This document shows, piece by piece, positions 18,117 through 38,735 of a stretch of 64,000 nt of DNA. The translations under genes were made by a program, and so were the position numbers. This DNA is from an uncultured delta proteobacterium (GTDB taxonomy: Bacteria > Desulfobacterota > DSM-4660 > Desulfatiglandales > HGW-15), in NCBI GenBank assembly GCA_963815145.1, contig CAWFFS010000010.1, positions 178,860-242,859 on the forward strand. Direction: 5' to 3'. The notes beneath the pieces were generated by a model. The model worked only from the letters and a program-made list of their open reading frames with translations, did not search any database and had not been told where the DNA came from. How positions within the stretch are numbered: position 1 is the stretch's first letter; each line of letters opens with the position of its first letter.

Positions 18117-19746
18117 CTATACAAACTCTATAAGTGAAGGATCATAATCCTCCACCTTTTCATATCCCAGGAGATTCAACAGGGTCGAGGCTACGTTTGA
18201 CAGGCCTTTTTCTTTCAGATCGGCCATTCTGTATTCACCCTTGTATTGCGGATCAAAAATAACAAACGGGACGGGGTTAAGGGTGTGCGCTGTCTTTACG
18301 CTCTTCTTCCCGTCCTTTCCAATGGAATACATAATATCCGCATTACCGTGATCTGCTGTCACCACGGCGATGCCTTCCATTTTTTCCACTGCATTGAGAA
18401 GCGCCCCGAGACATTTGTCAACTGTTTCAACTGCCGTTACTGCGGCATTCATTACACCGGTATGCCCTACCATGTCCCCATTGGCAAAATTAAGCCTTCC
18501 AAAACGATAGTCCCCTTCACTCATAAGTTTGATAACAGTGTCCTTTATCTCAAAGGCCTTCATTTCAGGTGCATGGTCAAACTCTATCCTGTCCGATGGT
18601 ATTTCTATATACTTTTCGAGTCTTTCATCTATATAACCGGACCTGTTCCCGTTCCAGAAATATGTAACATGACCGAATTTTTGCGTTTCGGATACGGCAA
18701 AGGATTTGACACCGGCAGCGCAGAGATATTCGCTGACAGTGCGATCAATGTCCGGAGGCCGGACCAGGAAATTCGGCGGGAGATGGGTATCACCGTCATA
18801 TTCCATCATTCCTGCATAGAGTATATCAGGAAGAGGCCCTCGCTCGAACTCGCTGAAATCCTTTTCAGTAAACGCCCTTGATATCTCTATTGCCCTGTCT
18901 CCTCTGAAATTGAAAAAAATTACCGAATCGCCATCCTTTACCGGGCCGACAGGATTATCGTTGCCATCCACCACGACAAAGGGATCAAGATACTGGTCTG
19001 TAATATGAGGATCTTCAGTATAATAGGTTTGTACTGCCTCCGATGCCGAATGAAATTTTCTTGCCTTTCCGAGTACATGTGCATCCCATCCTCTCTTTAC
19101 TATACTCCAGTCGGCATTGTACCTGTCCATGGTTACCTTCATCCGTCCACCGCCCGAGGCTATCGCATAATCCAGATTTTTATCCTTTCTGATCTTTTCC
19201 AGCCTTTCCTGGGTGGGGATTACATAATCGAGTGCGCTTTTTTCGCCCACATCTCTTCCGTCGAGAAGGACATGAACCCGAACTTTTTTAAATCCTGAGA
19301 CAGCACATTTGTCTATAAGGATATTAAGCTGATCGATATGTGAATGAACATTCCCGTCTGAAAGCAGCCCTATGAAATGGAGAGCCCCCCTTTTCCGAAC
19401 GAGCTGCTATCGTCTTCCATAATTTTGACTTAAAAACCTTTCCGGTTCGAAGGGCACTGTTTACAAGGCTTGCGCCCTGTTCAAAGACTCTTCCGGCACC
19501 AAGGGCATTGTGACCTACTTCGCTGTTGCCCATATCACCATCACTCGGAAGACCTACGGCCCTGCCATGCGCATTCAGTTGCGTATAGTACTTTGTTTTT
19601 AATAATTTTTTCAACACAGGTGCATTGGCAAGATAAACGGCGTTGCTGTCATCATCTTTTCCAATGCCAATACCGTCCATTATGATCAGGAGCAGAGGCC
19701 CTTTTCTGCCACTGAAGTTTTTTAAGGATTTCAATTCTAATGACAT
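18117..19746 (-). CDS. gpmI: 2,3-bisphosphoglycerate-independent phosphoglycerate mutase, frame broken in a C6/G6 run (fragments 19324..19746 and 18117..19250)
   Basis: N-terminal fragment has 'LLLIIMDGIGIG' and 'GNSEVGHNALGAGR'. After G6 (19385-19390) the adjacent frame reads 'ALHFIGLLSDGNVHSHIDQL...VHVLLDGRDV', continuous with the 377-aa ORF ('ADHGNAD'). Confidence 0.92.
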
Positions 19747-20026: not shown

Positions 20027-20068
20027 AAAAAAAGACCCCGTCAGGGCAACCCTGACAGGGTCTTTTTT
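20027..20068 (-). terminator. intrinsic terminator downstream of the 25883->20156 minus-strand operon (hairpin usable on both strands)
   Basis: AAAAAAA-GACCCCGTCAGGG-caac-CCTGACAGGGTC-TTTTTT. The stem is 12 bp with one mismatch and has A/T runs on both sides. Confidence 0.65.
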
Positions 20069-20155
20069 CAGAGATCAGGAATGAAGTAAGGAGGGAGACT
20101 CCATTTCCTTATATTTATTATTGCAATTTTAATACCAGCCGGGAAATGCTTTTGA

Positions 20156-21298
20156 TCACAGACTTACAGTAAAAAGATTTTCAGACATCTTCTTGATTTT
20201 ATTAATATTTATATCCACTCCGAGTCCGACACCCATTAAGGGGTATGCCTTTCCCCCATAGCCAAATGATACATCACTGTCAGTAATATTTTCAGCCAGA
20301 AGCAGATTGTCATATGACCCGTCATAATAAACCGAGTCATTTGAAAGCAGGTTGAGTATACGCCCTGCAGACGACAGCAGTCCTGATTCCCCAAGCTGGC
20401 AGCCTATCTGGAATTTCATTTTTGAGTTCCGGATATAATTAATCATCGAAAGTGAACGCCTCAACCCGCCGCACTTTGAAACCCTTATATTTATCATCTG
20501 GTAATGCCTGTTTTCATTCAAAAGATATAAATCATCAAGGGTGCAGGCTGACTCATCTGCCATAAGATCTATATTGTATTTTTTTGTTTCACTGCTCAGT
20601 TTCTCGATATCGGGGTCTTCCGGAGACATCGGCTGCTCAAGGATTTTTACTTTATAATCGTTTATCAGCTCTATATGCCTTAGGCCTGTTTCATATGTCC
20701 ATACCCCGTTTACATCGGCCTTCAGGTCATACCCATCATGAAAAATCCTGTCCACCGCAGTGAGAAGCATCTGGTTATGAGAATAATCTCTTCCCAGTTT
20801 AAGTTTCAGTTTATTGATGCCCAGGCTTTTTATCTTCCTGCATACATGATTCACCAGTTCCTCCGTCCCAAGCGGAATAGCGGCGCCATAACTGATGGAA
20901 TCGGTGTAATAATCCTTTGCGAACAGATCCAGCACCCGTTTTTTTTCAGATCTTGCATAGGCATCCAGTAAGGACATTTCCAGTGCGCATATGGAGGCAT
21001 TCATTCCTCTTGTGGAGGGAAGAGCATCGATCAGGCGCCAAATCTGATCCACAGTCTCCAATTCCCATGGGAAATCTTCTCTGCCTGTCAGATACCTGAT
21101 GTTTTCTTCTGCAGTTTCCAGGGTCTCACCGGTTACATAGGGCCTCGGAGCACCCTCTCCGCAACCTAATACTTCTCCTTTTTCATTGACCAGAATTACT
21201 ACAATATTCCTGACCCATAACCGTTTCCTGAGTGAATGTGAAAATTCTCCTGCGAAAGGCAGAATGACCCTTGCGATAATTGCTTTTTTAATTCGCAT
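20156..21298 (-). CDS. enolase-superfamily enzyme, MLE subgroup (dipeptide epimerase / N-acylamino-acid racemase / OSBS-like)
   Basis: Catalytic and metal motifs in order: 'KLKLKLG' (KxK), 'DVNGVW', 'ILEQPM', 'LMADES', 'NIRVSKCGG'. Confidence 0.75.
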   Translation of the reverse strand: MRIKKAIIARVILPFAGEFSHSLRKRLWVRNIVVILVNEKGEVLGCGEGAPRPYVTGETLETAEENIRYLTGREDFPWELETVDQIWRLIDALPSTRGMNASICALEMSLLDAYARSEKKRVLDLFAKDYYTDSISYGAAIPLGTEELVNHVCRKIKSLGINKLKLKLGRDYSHNQMLLTAVDRIFHDGYDLKADVNGVWTYETGLRHIELINDYKVKILEQPMSPEDPDIEKLSSETKKYNIDLMADESACTLDDLYLLNENRHYQMINIRVSKCGGLRRSLSMINYIRNSKMKFQIGCQLGESGLLSSAGRILNLLSNDSVYYDGSYDNLLLAENITDSDVSFGYGGKAYPLMGVGLGVDININKIKKMSENLFTVSL

Positions 21299-23300
21299 TT
21301 AAAAACGGGCTCCCCGGATTGTTTTGAACATCCTGCGGATGAACGGGCAGATCAATAATGAATTTTGCCCCTTCATTCACTTTACTTTTCACCTCTATCG
21401 TTCCGCAATGGTCCTGTATATTCTGGTGAACAATGAAAAGTCCCAGCCCTGTCCCGCTGTGATCCGTGCTCTTATATTTTGTTGAAAAGTATGGATCGAA
21501 TATTTTATTGAGCAGGTTCTCCGGTATCCCTTCACCACTGTCCTCAACTATTATGCGGATACCTAGTCCGTTTTTCATTTCTGCGTTTCTTTTTGTGGTT
21601 ATTTTTATCAATCCGTGTTCAGGTGTAAATTCCACTGCATTGGAGAGGAGATTTAATATCACCTGTTTGATTTTTTCGGAATCAATCCATACCTCTTTTA
21701 TCAACGGATCAAAATCCTTTTCTACCCTGATCTTTTTAACATTGCTCTTTGGAGAAACAAGAAGAACCATCTTTGCTATTATTTCATGCAGATTATTTGA
21801 TTCAAACCTGGATTCTCTGGTATTTACCAGATCAAGAAGCTCGGAAATCAGGTCATTGACCCTCTCTGTTTCCTCAAGGGCAATCTTGTGAAAATTTACC
21901 CTGTATTCCTCATCATCCAGTTTATAGGGCAGCAACTGTATGAATGTACCGATGGCTGTCATGGGGTTTTTGATTTCATGTGCCAGCCTTGCCGCCAGAT
22001 CACCTAAAAACGCCAGCTTTTCGGCTCTGCTCAAGAGTGCGTGAGAGCGCTTGAGTTCCAGCATCTGTTCCTGAAGCTGCCTGTATAGCCTGGCATTTTC
22101 AATGGCTATCGCTATCTGTGGTGAAAAAATTTCCAGGGTCCGGCGTGTTTCTATTGGCACACCATCCACTTCAAGGGAATCTGTCGCAATAACACCAATA
22201 ACCTTTGCCCGTGTGATCAGGGGGACTACGTGGACGGCACGGGACTTTCCATAGCTCAGTACTATGTTCTCTTTTCGAAGACTTGAGTTATTAACATCCG
22301 GGATGTATTCCGCTTTCCCTGAGTTGGTGACCCTTACGAGCATGTTGTTGACCCTGTGCAGGGGTATCTGATATTTCATTATTTCATCAGGGATTTCACC
22401 GTCGAACCCTGTTGCATGAAGATATTCAAGACAGCCTTGCTGCCCATTTACAAGGAGTATCAACGCCCTTCGTATCCTGCACACATTTGACAATGTGTTC
22501 ATTATTACTGTTAAGAGATCATCCAGATTCAATACTGAAAGGATAGCCTTGCCTGTCTCCTGTATGGCCTGGAGCTGTTTTATTTTATTGTTCAGGTCGA
22601 CATTAAGCGTGTTTACTTCTTCAAATTTTTGTTCAATGACCTGTTTGTCTCTTTCCATCTCTTTGATAGTCTCATTGAGCACTGATTTGGATGAAAAGAA
22701 TCTCGAAAAAAATATTTTAACATTGTTCTGAGAAGACCATTTCAGATGATACTCGCAATAGGGATCACCATTGAAAAAACATCTCTTTTCTTCTAGGGAT
22801 ATGGGCGAACCTCCCCAGATGAGCGGAATGTAGCTGTATGATCCCTGGTTATAAAGGCATATGTCCTTTGAAACCTCCATCCCCGGTGTCCAGTGAAGCC
22901 TCACAACAGCGTTGTTATTGTTTAATTCGACAAGTTGAACCTTTTTATTTCTGTTCCATTTGTCATTAATCCGCTGCAGGTTTTTTAAACCTTTTTTGAT
23001 CGTCCAGAAGGCCTTTACTATTATCCTCTGACCGTATCCGAGACGAAAGTTCTCAGCTGCGTATCTCGCTATATGAAACGCGGTCAGATCATCCTTAAAA
23101 AATATTCTTGCCCTTTCATATAATTTTGCTGCAATCGAGCACGAAATCCAGTTTGCTTCATCACATAAGTAGGATTCTGCATCAGGAAGCGAATCTATTT
23201 CAGGATCAAGGTCCTTCAGCATGTATTCCAGATCGCCGCTGTTAGTTTTTACATAGTTGATAATGGCCCTGGAATTTATGCAGCTGACTTCTTTTTTCAT
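21288..23300 (-). CDS. sensor histidine kinase (unknown N-terminal sensor domain, coiled coil, GAF, HisKA, HATPase)
   Basis: H-box 'LAARLAHEIKNPMTAI'. ATPase 'NLLSNAVEFTP...VEDSGEGIP...GTGLGLFIV'. GAF-like 'LDDLLTVIMNTLSNV...VVPLITRAKVIGVIATDS'. Confidence 0.85.
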   Translation of the reverse strand: MKKEVSCINSRAIINYVKTNSGDLEYMLKDLDPEIDSLPDAESYLCDEANWISCSIAAKLYERARIFFKDDLTAFHIARYAAENFRLGYGQRIIVKAFWTIKKGLKNLQRINDKWNRNKKVQLVELNNNNAVVRLHWTPGMEVSKDICLYNQGSYSYIPLIWGGSPISLEEKRCFFNGDPYCEYHLKWSSQNNVKIFFSRFFSSKSVLNETIKEMERDKQVIEQKFEEVNTLNVDLNNKIKQLQAIQETGKAILSVLNLDDLLTVIMNTLSNVCRIRRALILLVNGQQGCLEYLHATGFDGEIPDEIMKYQIPLHRVNNMLVRVTNSGKAEYIPDVNNSSLRKENIVLSYGKSRAVHVVPLITRAKVIGVIATDSLEVDGVPIETRRTLEIFSPQIAIAIENARLYRQLQEQMLELKRSHALLSRAEKLAFLGDLAARLAHEIKNPMTAIGTFIQLLPYKLDDEEYRVNFHKIALEETERVNDLISELLDLVNTRESRFESNNLHEIIAKMVLLVSPKSNVKKIRVEKDFDPLIKEVWIDSEKIKQVILNLLSNAVEFTPEHGLIKITTKRNAEMKNGLGIRIIVEDSGEGIPENLLNKIFDPYFSTKYKSTDHSGTGLGLFIVHQNIQDHCGTIEVKSKVNEGAKFIIDLPVHPQDVQNNPGSPFLNAN

Positions 23301-23320: not shown

Positions 23321-24916
23321 TTACAGATTTAAAACCCTGCTGCTCCTCCGGCCTGATAATTCGTCTTTTTTCGCCTTTCTCAGGATGGAAAGAAAACCCC
23401 TCAATAAATCCAGGTTATCTCCATTTACTTTAATGATATTTCTCTCCCCGTCTTTATAGCAACTATCGGGTATAACAGGGTCAAATAATGATGATGCCGG
23501 CAGTCTGAAAAACGGTACCATTTTCAAAAAAGCCGTCTGTAATTTTTCTGTATTATTGGACAGCCTGTAAATTTTGTCGATATAGGACATGACCGTCTCA
23601 AAGGTAAGATCCCTGGATGGTTTCCTCACAACATTCTGCCCGAATACCGTATCATCATCAAATACTACATCAGGTAATGATATCGCCAGGTCATGTATTT
23701 TTGTTTTGGGATAAACATGACATTCTCCGACCTTGAAGACATGCCCTGCCCTGCCGCTGAACTCCGTGAGTTTTTTTGCAAAATTATAGCTTTCTGCCAG
23801 ATCGTCTTCCGTATCGCCAGGATAACCCGCAATCATAAAAATCATCAGGGGAATTTCATATTCGGCCGCCTTTTTGAATATGGCCAGAGTATTGCTCAGA
23901 TATCTTTCATAATGCGCCCGGTCTTTTATCTTATTCATTCTGCGCAGGGTATTATAGCTTGCGGATTCGAAACCAAGCACAAGGGTTCCGCATACATCAT
24001 GGATTTCCGGGATTATCTCGGGATCAAAAACATCACATCGTGTTTCAAAGTGGATCTTCATTCCGAGTTTCCTGATAGCCGGCACAAGATCAAAGGACCT
24101 GAACAATGCATCGCACACTACTATGTCTTTTGCCCTGCAATGATCGGCAAGATTTCTCAGATCCGACTCAATAATCTCTGATGGTACAGCTTTTCTGGAA
24201 GGTCTGATATAATCTTCCATGCAAAAATTACACCTGTAAGAGCATCCCCGGCTGAAAGAATACGGAAGGACATCATAGGCCGCAGGATTTTTTAACAGGG
24301 TCAGGTCGAGGGGCGCCTTGTCATTTAAATCGAATCTTTCGCTATTATGTGTAAAAACCAAGGTTTCATTATCCTTCCATACAAGTCCGGATATTTTTTT
24401 ATCTCTGGGATCTCTGCCGCTCGTCAGTCTTTCAATTATCTTCAGCGCAGGTATCTCACCCTCTCCCCTTACAATAAGATCAACCGCATCCGTCCTTTGG
24501 AAAATATCTTCATAATAAAGCGTAGGAAAATATCCGCCCAGAAATAAAAATATTTCAGGGTTGTTCTTTTTAATAATTTCACACAAATGAACACTTTCTT
24601 CTGCCTGTGATATGGCAGTACATGAAATGCCGATTCCTGCGGGTTTGAGCAGTGATATATCCTCAAGTAATTCATCATATATTCTATCTTTACCACTTTT
24701 GTTTAAGGGAAGCCCATAATCCATTGGAATTGATATAACTTTTATATCGATATCAGGATTATTCTTTTTGACATAACCGGCAATTTCCAGAAGTGGAAGA
24801 GGATAAGCCGGGACATACATACCTATGTTTTTTGAAACCGGTTCCAGAAGCAGTATCAAAATATACTCCTTTCCTTTATAGGGGTTATCTCCATGACGAT
24901 CAGACATGCCTTTCAA
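23321..24916 (-). CDS. B12-binding domain-containing radical SAM protein
   Basis: The N-terminal Rossmann-like B12-binding region precedes 'SRGCSYRCNFCMED' (CxxxCxxC). Confidence 0.8.
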   Translation of the reverse strand: MKGMSDRHGDNPYKGKEYILILLLEPVSKNIGMYVPAYPLPLLEIAGYVKKNNPDIDIKVISIPMDYGLPLNKSGKDRIYDELLEDISLLKPAGIGISCTAISQAEESVHLCEIIKKNNPEIFLFLGGYFPTLYYEDIFQRTDAVDLIVRGEGEIPALKIIERLTSGRDPRDKKISGLVWKDNETLVFTHNSERFDLNDKAPLDLTLLKNPAAYDVLPYSFSRGCSYRCNFCMEDYIRPSRKAVPSEIIESDLRNLADHCRAKDIVVCDALFRSFDLVPAIRKLGMKIHFETRCDVFDPEIIPEIHDVCGTLVLGFESASYNTLRRMNKIKDRAHYERYLSNTLAIFKKAAEYEIPLMIFMIAGYPGDTEDDLAESYNFAKKLTEFSGRAGHVFKVGECHVYPKTKIHDLAISLPDVVFDDDTVFGQNVVRKPSRDLTFETVMSYIDKIYRLSNNTEKLQTAFLKMVPFFRLPASSLFDPVIPDSCYKDGERNIIKVNGDNLDLLRGFLSILRKAKKDELSGRRSSRVLNL

Positions 24917-25883
24917 GCAGAGGCCGTAAAACCGGTCCTGCTGTACCTCTTATTGTTGCAGGCGCCCTGAATGATCGGGAACCGCACAATTGAGGATATT
25001 TTTTCCACTGGTACCATTGCTCCGGATAGTGATATATGAACTGCTCAAGCACCTTAAGGACTGCCTCGCCTGTTGTAATGGAATTACTGCTGCTAATCAT
25101 CCTCAGCATATCATCATGGGAATACACTATCAATTCATACTTGGAAAGGCTGTATCTGTGAATTACTCCAAATAACACTTCGGCACCCGATCTTTTCTGC
25201 ATTATATTAATAGTCCTGTCCAGGCCTGTAATCTGCCCGAGAAATGTTGTCCTTTTCCTGTCCGAAGGCCTCCACTCATCTATCTCGTCACACTGGGTCA
25301 CAAGGACACGGTTTTCCTTTAATTCCGATATGGCATGATGAAATACATTTCCGGATTTTTCAGCATCAATCATTTTTATATTATATTTTTCGGCCTGGGC
25401 AAAAACTTTTTTTCGCAATTGAGCGGTCTTAAATCTGGCTATCATTGATATATTTATATTTTTAATTGCAAGCAGTGTCGGGATAAACTCAATGGCTCCG
25501 TAATGACCGGTTATGAGAATAACGCCCCTGCCATTTAAAAGGGCTTTTTTTATCAGGGCCAGATCGTTACATATAACACTGGAAGACAGGAAGCCTGTAG
25601 CCTTTCTTTTGCTTTCAAAGGCAATATAAAGCTTCTCATAATAATGATAAAGGATTCCATTAAAAACCCTTTTGAGAGTCTTATCCCTGTCATCATCGTT
25701 CCTTATCATACGCATGACCTCAAGGACTGATTTTTCTATGACCTGTTTTTCACGGTTCTTTATGAAGAAATAGATCCTGCCCAAAAAAAATATATAAAAC
25801 CTTGCCAGTTTCCATCCAAACACCATATAAAGAAAAATGTTAACTCTCGCCTGTAAAAAATTACTCAATCTAAAAATTCTCAT
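24900..25883 (-). CDS. lysophospholipid acyltransferase family protein (LpxL/HtrB-like lipid A biosynthesis acyltransferase fold)
   Basis: N-terminal TM helix. 'ITGHYGAIE' (HX4D/E acyltransferase motif). C-terminal 'YPEQWYQWKKY' resembles the LpxL 'PEQY.W.H.R.K' tail. Confidence 0.7.
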   Translation of the reverse strand: MRIFRLSNFLQARVNIFLYMVFGWKLARFYIFFLGRIYFFIKNREKQVIEKSVLEVMRMIRNDDDRDKTLKRVFNGILYHYYEKLYIAFESKRKATGFLSSSVICNDLALIKKALLNGRGVILITGHYGAIEFIPTLLAIKNINISMIARFKTAQLRKKVFAQAEKYNIKMIDAEKSGNVFHHAISELKENRVLVTQCDEIDEWRPSDRKRTTFLGQITGLDRTINIMQKRSGAEVLFGVIHRYSLSKYELIVYSHDDMLRMISSSNSITTGEAVLKVLEQFIYHYPEQWYQWKKYPQLCGSRSFRAPATIRGTAGPVLRPLLERHV

Positions 25884-25936
25884 GGTTCCCCCCCCTGTCT
25901 GCTGTCAAAATATCAAGGACCAGCTGGAAATATTAT

Positions 25937-25952
25937 GTCAATATTTATGCCA
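25937..25952 (-). promoter_or_regulatory. candidate sigma-54 (-24/-12) promoter for the acyltransferase operon (imperfect)
   Basis: The minus strand reads TGGCATaaataTTGAC. The -24 TGGCAT and the spacing are correct, but the -12 element is GA instead of the conserved GC. It lies 55 nt upstream of the start at 25883. Confidence 0.3.
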
Positions 25953-26110
25953 AAACATTTTTTACTTGTATTTATTTATTCCTGAGATCCTCTGCATACT
26001 GAGCAACATTATATCTATTTAATTTTGTTAGCTTTTACCAAAGATCAAGAATTCATATGCTTTTATAAGTTATTCAGCCCCGGAGATTTTTTTTAAAAAA
26101 TGGGATAAAA

Positions 26111-26149
26111 TGCACAAATTTTTGTGCACGCTGCACATTTTTATGTGCA
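26111..26149. promoter_or_regulatory. tandem palindromic operator/UAS pair (TGCACA-N6-TGTGCA x2)
   Basis: TGCACAaattttTGTGCA (26111-26128) and TGCACAtttttaTGTGCA (26132-26149), with centres 21 bp apart. The same arrangement recurs at 38038-38077. Confidence 0.55.
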
Positions 26150-26358
26150 AAAAACCTGATTTTTTTATAATATGAAGATTAGCTGTTCTATAATTTTTGA
26201 TTTTTTTAATCATATAATTTGCGTTCAAGTTAGAATTAGCCTAGATTATTGTTTAAGTTAATTGTATACAGTCAAAATGTATTTAAAAAATGTTTAATTC
26301 CTACCTGAACCCAGCAATTGCATTTGATTATTTTTTTTACCGGAAAGGAAAACTTTTA

Positions 26359-27699
26359 ATGGGTAATAAAGCCTCCATACTTGTTGTCGATGATGAATAC
26401 GGCGTTCTGCAATCATTTAAAATGGTATTGGGCTCGGAATATAATATATTTCTCGCCGAGACAGGTGAAAAGGCGGTAAGAATATTTTCCGAAAACGCAA
26501 TTGACCTGATATTGCTTGATATCATCCTGCCGGATTCCAATGGCATTGATCTATTGAAAAAATTCAAGGAAACCGATCCTGATACAGAGGTCATCATGGT
26601 AACAGCTGTAAAAGAGGTAAAAACTGCCGTAGAAGCCATGAGATTCGGTGCATATGATTATATTGTCAAACCTTTTGTTGTTGAAGATATTATCAACATA
26701 ATAAACAGGGTACTGGAAAAGCACCGTTTGCAGAGGGAGGTTACATATCTCAAGGATGAACTGGAAAGATTTCAGCCATTTGAAAAGATTGTGGGGCAGG
26801 ACCCTAAGATGCTGGAAATTTTTGAATTGATATCCACCATAGCCGAAAGCGATGGAGCAGTATTGATACAGGGAGAAAGCGGCACGGGCAAAGAGCTGGT
26901 AGCAAGGGCGGTCCACAGGCTTGGTGCAAGAAAAAATCAACCCTTTGTGGTCATTAATTGCGCGGCAATTCCGGCAACTCTTATGGAGAGTGAAATTTTC
27001 GGCCATAATAAAGGGGCTTTTACCGGTGCATCGGCATTAAAGATAGGAAAACTGGAAATAGCCAACAAGGGGATTGTATTTTTAGATGATGTGGATACAC
27101 TTGACATAGGAATGCAGGCAAAATTGTTAAGGGTCATCCAGGAGAAAGAATTCGAAAGACTTGGCAGCACCAAGCTTATCCGGATAAATGTTCGTTTTAT
27201 AGCAGCATCAAATAAAAACCTTAAACACCTTGCCGAAACAGGACTGTTTCGTGAGGATCTTTTTTACAGGCTTAACGTATTTCCAGTTGAAATTCCGCCC
27301 CTCAGAGAGAGACGGGGAGATATCCGTCTATTGCTCGATCATTTTCTGAACCTTTATTCCAAACAGAATGGAAAACCCTTAAAGAAATTCTCAAACAGTG
27401 CAGCAAAGCTCCTTACAGATCATTATGAATGGCCGGGTAATGTTCGTGAGCTTCAAAACCTTGTGGAACGACTTGCTACCATTACCAGGGGAAATGTGAT
27501 CTTCCCTAAAAACATTTCGAATTTCAGCATCAATAAAAAGGAAATCAGGGATGTACCTCTGAAAGATGCTGTCGATATCTTTGAAAAAGAATTTATAGAT
27601 GATGTATTGAAACGGGTAAGAGGCAGCAAGAAGGATGCCGCACGTATCCTGGGAATACATCGTAATACGCTTCAAAAGAAATTGACTGGCCAGACGTAA
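26359..27699 (+). CDS. sigma-54-dependent Fis-family response regulator (NtrC-type bEBP)
   Basis: REC 'ILVVDDEYG...DLILLDIILPDSNG'. AAA+ Walker A 'GESGTGKE'. 'GAFTGA' sigma-54 contact loop. C-terminal HTH 'AARILGIHRNTLQKKL'. Start taken at 'MGNKASILVVDD'. Confidence 0.92.
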   Translation: MGNKASILVVDDEYGVLQSFKMVLGSEYNIFLAETGEKAVRIFSENAIDLILLDIILPDSNGIDLLKKFKETDPDTEVIMVTAVKEVKTAVEAMRFGAYDYIVKPFVVEDIINIINRVLEKHRLQREVTYLKDELERFQPFEKIVGQDPKMLEIFELISTIAESDGAVLIQGESGTGKELVARAVHRLGARKNQPFVVINCAAIPATLMESEIFGHNKGAFTGASALKIGKLEIANKGIVFLDDVDTLDIGMQAKLLRVIQEKEFERLGSTKLIRINVRFIAASNKNLKHLAETGLFREDLFYRLNVFPVEIPPLRERRGDIRLLLDHFLNLYSKQNGKPLKKFSNSAAKLLTDHYEWPGNVRELQNLVERLATITRGNVIFPKNISNFSINKKEIRDVPLKDAVDIFEKEFIDDVLKRVRGSKKDAARILGIHRNTLQKKLTGQT

Positions 27700-37455: not shown

Positions 37456-37746
37456 TTACTCTTTTTCAACAAAGATCAGGTCTTTTATTAATTCAAACTT
37501 TTTCTGACCGATACCCTTCACTTTCATTAAATCCTCTATCGTTTTAAATTTTCCATTTTTTTCTCTATATTCAATTATTCTCTCTGCATATTTTTTCCCG
37601 ATTCCTTTCAGCTTGATTAGCTCCTGAACGGTTGCCTTGTTAAGGTCAACCTTTACTGCATCGACAGCCTGCACAACTCCTGCTGCTGCAAATACGATAA
37701 CAATACACAAAACAATAATTCTTCTCAATTTAAGCATCTCCGTCAT
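37456..37746 (-). CDS. ComEA-family helix-hairpin-helix DNA-binding protein
   Basis: AAGGAGG RBS lies 8 nt upstream of the ATG at 37746. N-terminal TM/signal segment. Tandem HhH 'VDLNKATVQELIKLKGIGKKYAERII...EDLMKVKGIGQKKFELI'. Confidence 0.8.
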   Translation of the reverse strand: MTEMLKLRRIIVLCIVIVFAAAGVVQAVDAVKVDLNKATVQELIKLKGIGKKYAERIIEYREKNGKFKTIEDLMKVKGIGQKKFELIKDLIFVEKE

Positions 37747-38037
37747 TGACAAAGCCTCCTTTTTCTAAAAGGTTGATAAAATCCATCACAGAAATACTAT
37801 GCCTGTAATGGTAACATTTTGATGTTTTTTTAATTTTTAAAAGGAAAGCAATTATGCTAATTACAATTTTGGTGCCAATCCTGGAGTCTCGTTACAAAAA
37901 TTAAAAACAAAGTATAGCCACTTCAAATATACCCCATAATATCAGACATATACAATTTACCTTAACCATAATAATTTATATAGTTCACTGAACCGGTGAT
38001 TTTTTTTAAAAAAAAAACGTAGAATTTCTTAGCTACT

Positions 38038-38077
38038 TGCACATATTTATGTGCATCAATGCACACAAATATGTGCA
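38038..38077. promoter_or_regulatory. second tandem TGCACA-N6-TGTGCA palindrome pair (candidate bEBP UAS)
   Basis: TGCACAtatttaTGTGCA (38038-38055) and TGCACAcaaataTGTGCA (38060-38077), with centres 22 bp apart. They lie about 100 bp upstream of the -24/-12 element at 38154-38170. Confidence 0.6.
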
Positions 38078-38153: not shown

Positions 38154-38170
38154 TGGGAATGTTTTTTGCA
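38154..38170 (+). promoter_or_regulatory. sigma-54 (-24/-12) promoter
   Basis: tGGGAATGTTTTTTGCAt. GG (38156-57) and GC (38168-69) have the canonical spacing, the -12 element is TTGCA, and there is a G at the consensus +7 position. AGGAG RBS and the ATG (38199) follow about 30 nt downstream. Confidence 0.6.
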
Positions 38171-38198: not shown

Positions 38199-38735
38199 AT
38201 GAGTGATGCAGACAATATCCAGAGAAATGATGAGATAATAAAAATATTAAGAGCCATAACACCATTAAGTCAGATAAGAGATGAGGATATCAGAGGACTC
38301 CTGAAATCCAGCAAAATGATAAAGTATGAACCAAACGAAGTAATTATCTCTGAAGGTGATTACAGCTGCTGGATTTACTTTCTGATAAAGGGAGAAGCAG
38401 GAATTCAAAAAGAAGGTGAAATAATAAATACCCTGACGCGATGTGGAGATATTTTTGGTGAAATGGGCATAATCGATAATTCTCCACGGTCAGCCACAAT
38501 TGTTGCAGTCACCAGTGCAGTATGTCTGGCAATTGACACATCATATGCTGAAAAATTAAGAGGTAATGAGAAAAATGCCTTTAACTCAATTTTATACAGA
38601 ATTTTTTCAGAAATTCTTACTGAAAGACTCAGACGTATGGATGAAGAGCTTATCAGGATAAAAAATGAAAATTACCGTCTTATAACCGAACTTGAAGTGA
38701 TAAAATCCGGTGTGAAATTGGAGATACTCCCCTGA
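38199..38735 (+). CDS. cyclic nucleotide-binding domain protein with C-terminal coiled coil (no DNA-binding domain)
   Basis: cNMP phosphate-binding cassette 'FGEMGIIDNSPRSATIVA' and beta-roll 'VIISEGDYSCWIYFLIKGE'. The C-terminus 'RLRRMDEELIRIKNENYRLITELE' is coiled-coil rather than HTH. Confidence 0.8.
   Translation: MSDADNIQRNDEIIKILRAITPLSQIRDEDIRGLLKSSKMIKYEPNEVIISEGDYSCWIYFLIKGEAGIQKEGEIINTLTRCGDIFGEMGIIDNSPRSATIVAVTSAVCLAIDTSYAEKLRGNEKNAFNSILYRIFSEILTERLRRMDEELIRIKNENYRLITELEVIKSGVKLEILP

Follow-up and report, generated by a model that had tools for sequence, protein, structure and literature searches.

A described system that resembles the present one by motif and lineage is DVU1419 of D. 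vulgaris, which binds TGTGCA-N6-TGCACA as validated by electrophoretic mobility shift assay (PMC3333781). The DVU1419 sites were found in pairs, 22–29 bp apart and 95–208 bp upstream of the targets (PMC3333781; Kazakov et al., 2015, PMC4641369), and DVU1419 was reported to be autoregulated and was assigned to envelope stress and non-coding RNA (PMC3333781; PMC4641369). Here, we analyzed a 64,000-bp stretch of DNA from an uncultured delta proteobacterium of the order Desulfatiglandales (contig CAWFFS010000010.1, positions 178,860–242,859; hereafter the window). Its intergenic region 25884–26358 separates the gene of an NtrC-family response regulator from a divergent operon starting with an LpxL/HtrB-family acyltransferase gene, and contains two palindromes of the form TGCACA-N6-TGTGCA. 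From sequence comparison, the two 18-bp palindromes are predicted to be a tandem enhancer (upstream activating sequence, UAS) for the adjacent regulator, a reading to which we assign a probability of roughly 0.78. For TGCACA-N6-TGTGCA in connection with sigma-54, only the differently arranged motif of DVU1419 was found in the literature.

Palindrome pairs and their association with sigma-54-type promoters

The following elements were found in the divergent region:

26111–26128: predicted UAS unit 1, TGCACAaattttTGTGCA, an exact palindrome, invariant in an 11-way alignment of orthologous intergenic regions
26132–26149: predicted UAS unit 2, TGCACAtttttaTGTGCA, an exact palindrome with its centre 21 bp from that of unit 1, invariant in the same alignment
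26080–26100: A/T-tract element CCGGAGATTTTTTTTAAAAAA, located between the pair and the minus-strand promoter, possibly a bend or a site for an architectural protein
25937–25952, minus strand: sigma-54-type promoter TGGCATAAATATTGAC, with -24 GG at 25951–25950 and -12 GA at 25939–25938 (GG-N10-GA)

The centres of TGCACAaattttTGTGCA and TGCACAtttttaTGTGCA are at 26119.5 and 26140.5, and re-reading of the sequence bore out both the palindromes and the 21-bp spacing described in an initial annotation of this DNA. The annotation was correct for this pair and did not mention a second one at 38038–38077. In the window, the exact 18-mer was present in four copies, forming two pairs, compared to 0.00 copies in 100 shuffles of the window, which excludes chance as the source of the palindromes. 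A third, weaker site 21 or 22 bp to either side of the pairs, as would suit three dimers, showed no enrichment.

A scan for tandem palindromes with gaps of 0–30 bp in 185,579 genomes, one per species, yielded at least 113 stretches. Gaps of 3–4 bp, corresponding to centres 21–22 bp apart, formed a sharp peak (61 of the 121 matches listed), and the listed pairs with these gaps came nearly all from Desulfobacterales, Desulfatiglandales and other Thermodesulfobacteriota bins, where a genome often contained several such sites. The matches listed also peaked at 14–15 bp, mostly owing to Bacteroidota.

For further analysis, 74 listed pairs with gaps of 1–5 bp (19–23 bp phasing), the window included, were taken as an enhancer set, and 400 bp were scanned on each side. 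The phasing was 21–22 bp in 63 of them. The weight matrix for sigma-54 promoters was composed from published consensus frequencies in an approximate form, so that absolute scores are approximate; with this matrix, outward-facing matches of at least 10 bits were found in 78 of 144 flanks and inward-facing ones in three. When positions -12 and -11 were left unscored, the numbers were 82 outward and 6 inward. About 50 control pairs whose gaps were at least 6 bp showed no outward excess, barring one or two Desulfobacterales cases. These orientation and spacing controls protect the enhancer conclusion although the sigma-54 scores are approximate. The distance from the pair centre to the -24 GG ranged from 72 to 226 bp over the loci, with preferred values of about 72, 129, 155 and 180–226 bp, and the palindromes thus stand in tandem on one helical face about 70–230 bp upstream of a promoter, as expected for a UAS. 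The outward excess and its absence at other spacings indicate that the pair behaves as a two-site enhancer facing sigma-54 promoters. Pairs of 21–22 bp recur in many Desulfobacterota genomes together with outward promoters.

Some matches were of a different kind. In Bacteroidota loci (L002, L003, L006, L007, L029, L031, L040, and others), the same palindrome occurred in pairs 32–33 bp apart and no sigma-54-like promoter accompanied it; because of this spacing and the missing promoters, these loci were not regarded as the same system, and an unrelated regulator presumably uses the palindrome there. Four loci from one Nitrospirales genome (L011, L034, L062, and L076) contained identical TGCACACTTAAGTGTGCA pairs that look like dispersed or tandem repeat elements. 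Likewise, the Dehalococcoidia locus L063 contained tandem arrays with the appearance of a repeat element and not of regulator sites.

The adjacent activator, the divergent operon and other genes of the window

The pair of the divergent region is flanked by the following genes:

26359–27699, plus strand: NtrC-family response regulator and sigma-54 activator, with a receiver domain, an AAA+ domain with GAFTGA, and a Fis-type helix-turn-helix (HTH)
24900–25883, minus strand: LpxL/HtrB-family acyltransferase of 327 amino acids, operon gene 1 (Pfam Lip_A_acyltrans, E = 2.8e-14), with orthologues divergent from the activator
23321–24916, minus strand: B12-binding radical SAM enzyme (Pfam Radical_SAM and B12-binding), overlapping the acyltransferase gene by 17 nucleotides (nt), gene order conserved
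21288–23300, minus strand: histidine kinase with a GAF domain, presumably the activator's partner (Pfam GAF, HisKA, and HATPase_c)
20156–21298, minus strand: enolase-superfamily protein (racemase/cycloisomerase-like), last operon gene (Pfam MR_MLE_C), overlapping the kinase gene by 11 nt

The gene at 26359–27699 is the only sigma-54 activator gene of the 64-kb window. Pfam Response_reg covered residues 7–115 of its product (E = 9e-27), and the DDE, LLDI, T, and K positions were conserved in all orthologues. The GAFTGA loop noted in the initial annotation was confirmed within a Sigma54_activat domain (E = 2e-66) that also contains GESGTGKE (Walker A). The C-terminus matched Pfam HTH_8, the last 65 residues had their best PDB matches in Fis, NtrC1, NtrX, and ZraR, and the RNTL motif of the recognition helix was kept in all orthologues. 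No NCBIfam equivalog cut-off was reached by the activator, the scores being 438 vs 714 bits for AtoC, 414 vs 559 for NtrC, 389 vs 503 for the PEP-CTERM regulator PrsR, and 358 vs 760 for ZraR, and it is thus assigned to none of these. The minus-strand operon is tight, with neighbouring genes overlapping by 11–17 nt or standing 20 nt apart. The kinase was 60–81% identical across orthologous loci, was always next to the activator and had AtoS as its best curated model, and the enolase-like gene was conserved in L112, L098, L053, L055, and L050.

The loci obtained by the motif scan were searched with the window proteins by tblastn. In 10 of the motif-derived genome loci listed, an activator orthologue (61–73% identity) directly adjoined the pair, and all 10 contained the same divergent operon of acyltransferase, radical-SAM, kinase and, in some, enolase-like genes. 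In three further loci, the pair was located on the other side of the activator gene and one or two units were present in the divergent region. The pair was also found beside distant homologues in Methylomirabilota L088 (51% identity) and in an unclassified bacterium, L037. When the orthologous intergenic regions of the window and the 10 loci were aligned with MAFFT (11 sequences), everything was seen to have diverged except for the four hexamers and the minus-strand promoter.

Since this first set of loci had been picked by the motif, a second set of 80 metagenome loci was drawn by similarity to the activator protein only (59–72% identity). With a pair defined as two units of at least 10/12 matching positions each and a spacing of 19–23 bp, a pair was present in 33 of the 71 loci that had at least 250 bp upstream, and exact units were found at 0.63 per kb upstream of the activator vs 0.067 per kb elsewhere in these loci. 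Where an LpxL-like gene was the divergent neighbour (32 loci), 25 contained a pair and three more a single exact unit, whereas only two of the 18 loci with a kinase or radical-SAM gene directly divergent contained a pair. Thus, the sites exist, are conserved, and are linked to sigma-54-type promoters and to this activator family.

Loci L128–L130, L138, L141, L149, L160, L166, L171, L175, and L177 carried a single unit right after the activator gene, followed 70–75 nt further on by a canonical TGGCAY-N5-TTGC promoter; the callable downstream open reading frame (ORF) was histidine kinase- or membrane protein-like.

The minus-strand promoter TGGCATAAATATTGAC ends 54 nt from the acyltransferase ATG at 25883, and the transcription start is predicted near 25927 (minus strand), which would place the UAS centre at about -203. 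The initial annotation had reported a good -24 element, correct spacing and GA at -12, and this reading was confirmed at 25952 to 25937: TGGCAT at 25952–25947 has the -24 GG in a TGGCAY context, the spacing is right, and at -12 the G is present and the C is replaced by A (TTGAC). The loose sigma-54 consensus occurred 17 times in the window compared to 18 expected, so that TGGCATAAATATTGAC is not significant on its own; it was accepted as real because of its conservation at related loci and not because of its score. TGGCAY-N5-TTGA, usually TTGAG, faced the acyltransferase gene in the window and in all 10 genome orthologues (TTGT in one). In the protein-ascertained set, TGGCAY-N5-TTG(A/T) faced this gene in 27 of 32 loci, with A at -12 in 26 and T in one. 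The GA that had been regarded as a defect is therefore the conserved state, with A or T at -12 in 11/11 and 27/27, together 38/38, orthologous promoters.

Over all enhancer-adjacent promoters, the -12 base was C in 38, A in 32, T in 11, and G in one, whereas sigma-54 matches far from any enhancer had a random distribution (A 17, G 14, C 12, and T 7). In L053, L064, L059, and L094, a canonical TTGCT promoter was present on the activator side of the same enhancer. As TTGCT promoters coexist with the deviating ones in a genome and even within a single intergenic region, the -12 deviation is specific to the promoter and does not point to an altered specificity of sigma-54. In E. coli, C at -12 is among five positions that "rarely deviate" in 135 mapped sigma-54 sites (PMC4591121), and no description of a whole sigma-54 promoter family fixed on A at -12 was found in the literature.

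The second pair of the window, enhancer 2, is surrounded by the following features:

38038–38055: enhancer 2 unit 1, TGCACAtatttaTGTGCA, exact 18-mer match
38060–38077: enhancer 2 unit 2, TGCACAcaaataTGTGCA, exact 18-mer match, centre 22 bp from that of unit 1
37993–38013: second copy of the A/T-tract element, CCGGTGATTTTTTTTAAAAAA, left of the pair
37862–37877, minus strand: sigma-54-type promoter TGGCACCAAAATTGTA, -12 GT, rank 7 in the window, predicted start near 37852, UAS centre at about -205
37456–37752, minus strand: ComEA-like helix-hairpin-helix protein whose N-terminus has a hydrophobic segment (Pfam HHH_3, NCBIfam ComEA repeat region)
38155–38170, plus strand: candidate sigma-54 promoter GGGAATGTTTTTTGCA, rank 4, with a weak -24 half, at a distance of 99 bp from the centre of the UAS and of 29 nt from the downstream ATG (38199)
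38199–38735, plus strand: cyclic-nucleotide-binding-domain protein, a possible second target (Pfam cNMP_binding)

The distance between UAS and promoter is alike at both window sites (about -203 and -205), and a ComEA-like gene was found in the same arrangement in L012, with the promoter TGGCACGCAAATTGAA. Enhancer 2 is thus predicted to serve the ComEA-like gene. It is flanked by two of the ten best sigma-54 matches of the window, TGGCACCAAAATTGTA and GGGAATGTTTTTTGCA, and may possibly serve the gene of the cNMP-binding protein as well; a search for an orthologous locus for testing conservation of GGGAATGTTTTTTGCA found none. The A/T-tract element CCGGnGATTTTTTTTAAAAAA occurs twice in the window, each time just left of a UAS pair on the side of the TTGA or TTGT promoter, and two matches were obtained in 0 of 100 shuffles. 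It was absent from the 115 other loci searched, and no role was assigned to it because it is specific to the window and unconserved elsewhere.

The initial annotation had proposed that the palindromes control the minus-strand operon, the activator gene itself, or both. The first part is supported by the conserved promoter on the acyltransferase side (11/11 and 27/32 loci). Direct autoregulation did not hold for the window, where the best sigma-54 score facing the activator gene (26150–26358, plus strand) was below 3 bits; a sigma-70 scan found no plus-strand promoter facing this gene either, and fewer matches than in shuffles. Elsewhere, the activator gene was faced by a further sigma-54 promoter in 7 of the 10 orthologous genome loci and in 10 of the 32 loci from metagenomes. 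In the window, feedback would run via the kinase gene of the minus-strand operon: as this gene lies inside the operon that is controlled, positive feedback would arise although the activator gene lacks a sigma-54 promoter of its own.

In other genomes, a simple first-ORF rule was used to assign downstream genes. The first genes after enhancer-linked promoters encoded single-domain receivers, PilZ proteins, a GAF-MshEN-T2SSE ATPase, and an adenylate/guanylate cyclase, as well as an HDOD protein, a VpsT-like LuxR regulator, an SpvB/FG-GAP protein, and histidine kinases. Together with the LpxL-family, ComEA-like, and cNMP-binding proteins of the window, this suggests, as read from domain names, a regulon concerned with envelope or surface properties and second-messenger signalling. 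A motif (TGCACA-N6-TGTGCA in pairs of 21–22 bp), a core operon, and a first sketch of a regulon are now assigned to an uncharacterised two-component system that is widespread in sediment Desulfobacterota, a group mostly known as metagenome bins, and the motif is usable for target prediction in any such genome.

Two further features of the window lie downstream of the operon. The best canonical sigma-54 match of the window, TGGTATTAAAATTGCA, is located on the minus strand at 20137–20122 and is followed by an 86-nt stretch (20027–20112, minus strand) with a 5′ hairpin carrying a CUCCCUCCUU loop and a perfect intrinsic terminator. The predicted fold had -41.6 kcal/mol and z = -7.1, and the stretch was 94% identical over 84 nt in the Desulfatiglans bin L112, where it likewise follows the enolase-like gene and has much less conserved flanks. 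There was no match to an Rfam family, and no TGCACA-type site was found upstream of the promoter at 20122–20137. The region 20027–20137 (minus strand) is a candidate for a sigma-54-dependent small RNA. Besides, a phosphoglycerate-mutase-like gene is split on the minus strand at 18117–19746 into ORFs 19324–19746 (140 amino acids) and 18117–19250 (377 amino acids), as might result from a frameshift, from decay into a pseudogene, or from misassembly.

Proposed mechanism and alternative explanations

The proposal of the initial annotation that the palindromes are the UAS of the adjacent activator is supported by the 10 genome loci, by 25 of the 32 protein-found loci with an LpxL-like neighbour, and by the outward promoters. 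In the proposed mechanism, the GAF-domain kinase from the divergent operon would phosphorylate the regulator, two dimers of which would occupy the palindromes through their Fis-type HTH and, the sites being two helical turns apart, would be placed on one face of the DNA. The bound dimers would nucleate the AAA+ ring, the approximately 180 bp of A/T-tract-rich DNA would loop, and the ring would contact sigma-54 RNA polymerase at TGGCAT-N5-TTGA (25952–25937). Hydrolysis of ATP would then open the promoter, and the operon of acyltransferase, B12 radical-SAM, kinase, and enolase-like genes would be expressed. The same regulator would also act at the second pair (38038–38077), for the ComEA-like and perhaps the cNMP-binding gene, and in related genomes the pair precedes many signalling genes. 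We infer binding, looping, phosphorylation and the signal; the adjacent protein is put forward as the binder of the palindromes because of its association with them. Taken together, the system appears to be a widespread, uncharacterised member of the NtrC-type enhancer/sigma-54 class, i.e., an ordinary bacterial switch.

Several observations weigh against this interpretation. By the approximate weight matrix, TGGCATAAATATTGAC ranked only 24th among the sigma-54 matches of the window, and judged by the canonical model it is a weak match. Near residue 240, the activator of the window has the Walker B motif FLDDV, and 10 Desulfobacterota orthologues likewise have FLDDV/I, with DD in place of DE, so that the hhhhDE pattern is not found in the window protein; DE is present in more distant homologues. 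By domain criteria, the DD Walker B leaves the activator within the bacterial enhancer-binding protein family. Furthermore, no palindrome was found near 16 close relatives (63–66% identity) whose direct divergent neighbour is a kinase or radical-SAM gene, and these 16 class B loci share a conserved sigma-70-like TTGCAT-N17-TATAAT in a short intergenic region. The expectation that the motif lies upstream of every close relative of the activator thus fails. As the motif is absent in class B (L132, L134, L140, L145, L155–L159, L161, L162, L173, L174, and L193) and present with an LpxL-like neighbour, it tracks the combination of activator and acyltransferase operon and not the activator gene alone. 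This distribution fits an enhancer that fires the sigma-54 promoter of the operon. A paralogue retains some probability as the binder, all the more as other sigma-54 activators with a similar HTH are surely present in these genomes.

A genuine sigma-54 enhancer that is bound by a paralogue encoded elsewhere, with the adjacent regulator as a mere neighbour or target, would agree with the occurrence of the motif before many unrelated genes, several per genome, and with the 16 relatives lacking it, and the RNTL helix is so common in the NtrC family that specificity is unreadable from it. We nevertheless consider this improbable: the motif was about 10 times denser upstream of the activator family than elsewhere in these loci, it was found beside homologues as distant as those of Methylomirabilota L088 and of L037, and a divergent regulator and target with a shared site are the usual signature of a cognate pair in regulon reconstruction (e.g., PMC4641369). 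The palindromes might instead serve mainly as an operator of the regulator's own gene, repressing or tuning a sigma-70 promoter in the A/T-rich region 26150–26358. NtrC-type proteins do repress overlapping sigma-70 promoters, e.g., glnAp1 and glnL, another promoter is needed in the window since no sigma-54 site faces the regulator gene, and three perfect TATAAT hexamers are present on the plus strand between the pair and this gene. The negative result of the sigma-70 scan argues against an operator, and the outward association with sigma-54 promoters and the conserved acyltransferase-side promoter mark the enhancer as the conserved role, which makes a mainly operator function quite improbable, although the two roles are mutually compatible.

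Hardly any weight is given to an RNA hairpin or terminator, or to a chance or repeat-element origin. The terminator scan flagged TGTGCAcgcTGCACA with a T-run at 26123–26137, and some matches from other phyla, such as the Nitrospirales pairs and the Dehalococcoidia arrays, are clearly copies of repeat elements. However, the flagged stem is the junction of the two abutting half-sites, TGTGCA-cgc-TGCACA, and was rejected as an artefact; no plus-strand gene ends upstream because the region is divergent, and the half-sites are invariant across species whereas spacers and gap vary, which is the pattern of a protein site and not of an RNA stem. The four copies in the window compared to none in shuffles exclude chance.

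A specialist would be surprised only by the conserved -12 A and by the DD that the activator clade has in its Walker B motif. At the position where melting nucleates, an A:T pair would presumably change the stability of the closed complex or the energy needed for opening. If it weakened the fork-junction "lock" that keeps closed complexes silent, promoter and activator could have co-adapted. It is conceivable, but in our estimation doubtful, that a Desulfobacterota lineage has a selected grade of sigma-54 promoter, TGGCAY-N5-TTGA(G), paired and co-adapted with Asp-for-Glu Walker B activators, so that one enhancer would serve promoters with differing thresholds or kinetics. If true, this would be a previously undescribed natural dial on the sigma-54 mechanism. 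The loci are a natural data set on the role of the sigma-54 -12 C, in which one enhancer is flanked by a canonical promoter and, opposite, by one with an invariant -12 A.

Comparison with known systems

Two solved structures from Aquifex aeolicus, NtrC4 (4l4u, E = 9.5e-106) and NtrC1 (1ny5), are the closest to the window regulator by sequence. Two binding sites of NtrC4 have been reported upstream of the lipid A gene lpxC, which would parallel the LpxL-family target and is a lead rather than a test. With respect to the -12 base, E. coli pspA, which is PspF-dependent, provides a precedent in having an established sigma-54 promoter with a non-C at -12 (TTGT), TTGGCACGCAAATTGTAT, the first 14 bases of which are identical to the L012 regulon promoter TGGCACGCAAATTGAA. 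In pspA, the T at -12 is an isolated case, whereas in the present set more than half of the enhancer-adjacent promoters have A or T and one family has them in 38/38.

AtoS/AtoC of E. coli resembles the window system in that AtoC was the best-scoring curated model for the regulator and AtoS for the kinase. The ato enhancer, GCTATGCAGAAATTTGCACAgTGCGCAATTTTCTGCATAGC, likewise consists of two adjacent units of about 20 bp, together forming a composite palindrome of 41 bp whose cores are TGCA and whose spacers are A/T-rich, and is located about 105 bp upstream of the atoDAEB promoter TGGCACTCCCCTTGCT; AtoC is said to bind it. However, the regulator of the window stays far below the 714-bit cut-off, the ato targets belong to acetoacetate catabolism and are unrelated, the TGCA repeats of ato are 10 bp apart compared to TGCAC-N8-GTGCA in the window, and the ato promoter has the canonical GC at -12.

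Enteric NtrC (NR-I) at glnAp2 shows the same domain architecture, the same TGCAC/GTGCA half-sites, and two strong palindromic sites on one helix face that activate a sigma-54 promoter over a distance of more than 100 bp. At glnA of E. coli, the sites TGCACCAACATGGTGCT and AGCACTATATTGGTGCA are located upstream of TTGGCACAGATTTCGCT. The NtrC unit differs in being 17 bp long (TGCAC-N7-GTGCA), with sites 32 bp apart, compared to 18 bp (N8) and 21–22 bp in the window. The window regulator also scored below the NtrC cut-off (414 vs 559 bits), and no nitrogen-assimilation genes were found among the targets. DVU1419 of D. vulgaris, compared by motif and lineage, belongs to the same broad lineage and has the same hexamers in an 18-bp motif. 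Their order is reversed relative to TGCACA-N6-TGTGCA, which implies a different dimer geometry. This comparison indicates that the predicted system of the window works like those of AtoC, NtrC, and DVU1419 and is a member of none of them.

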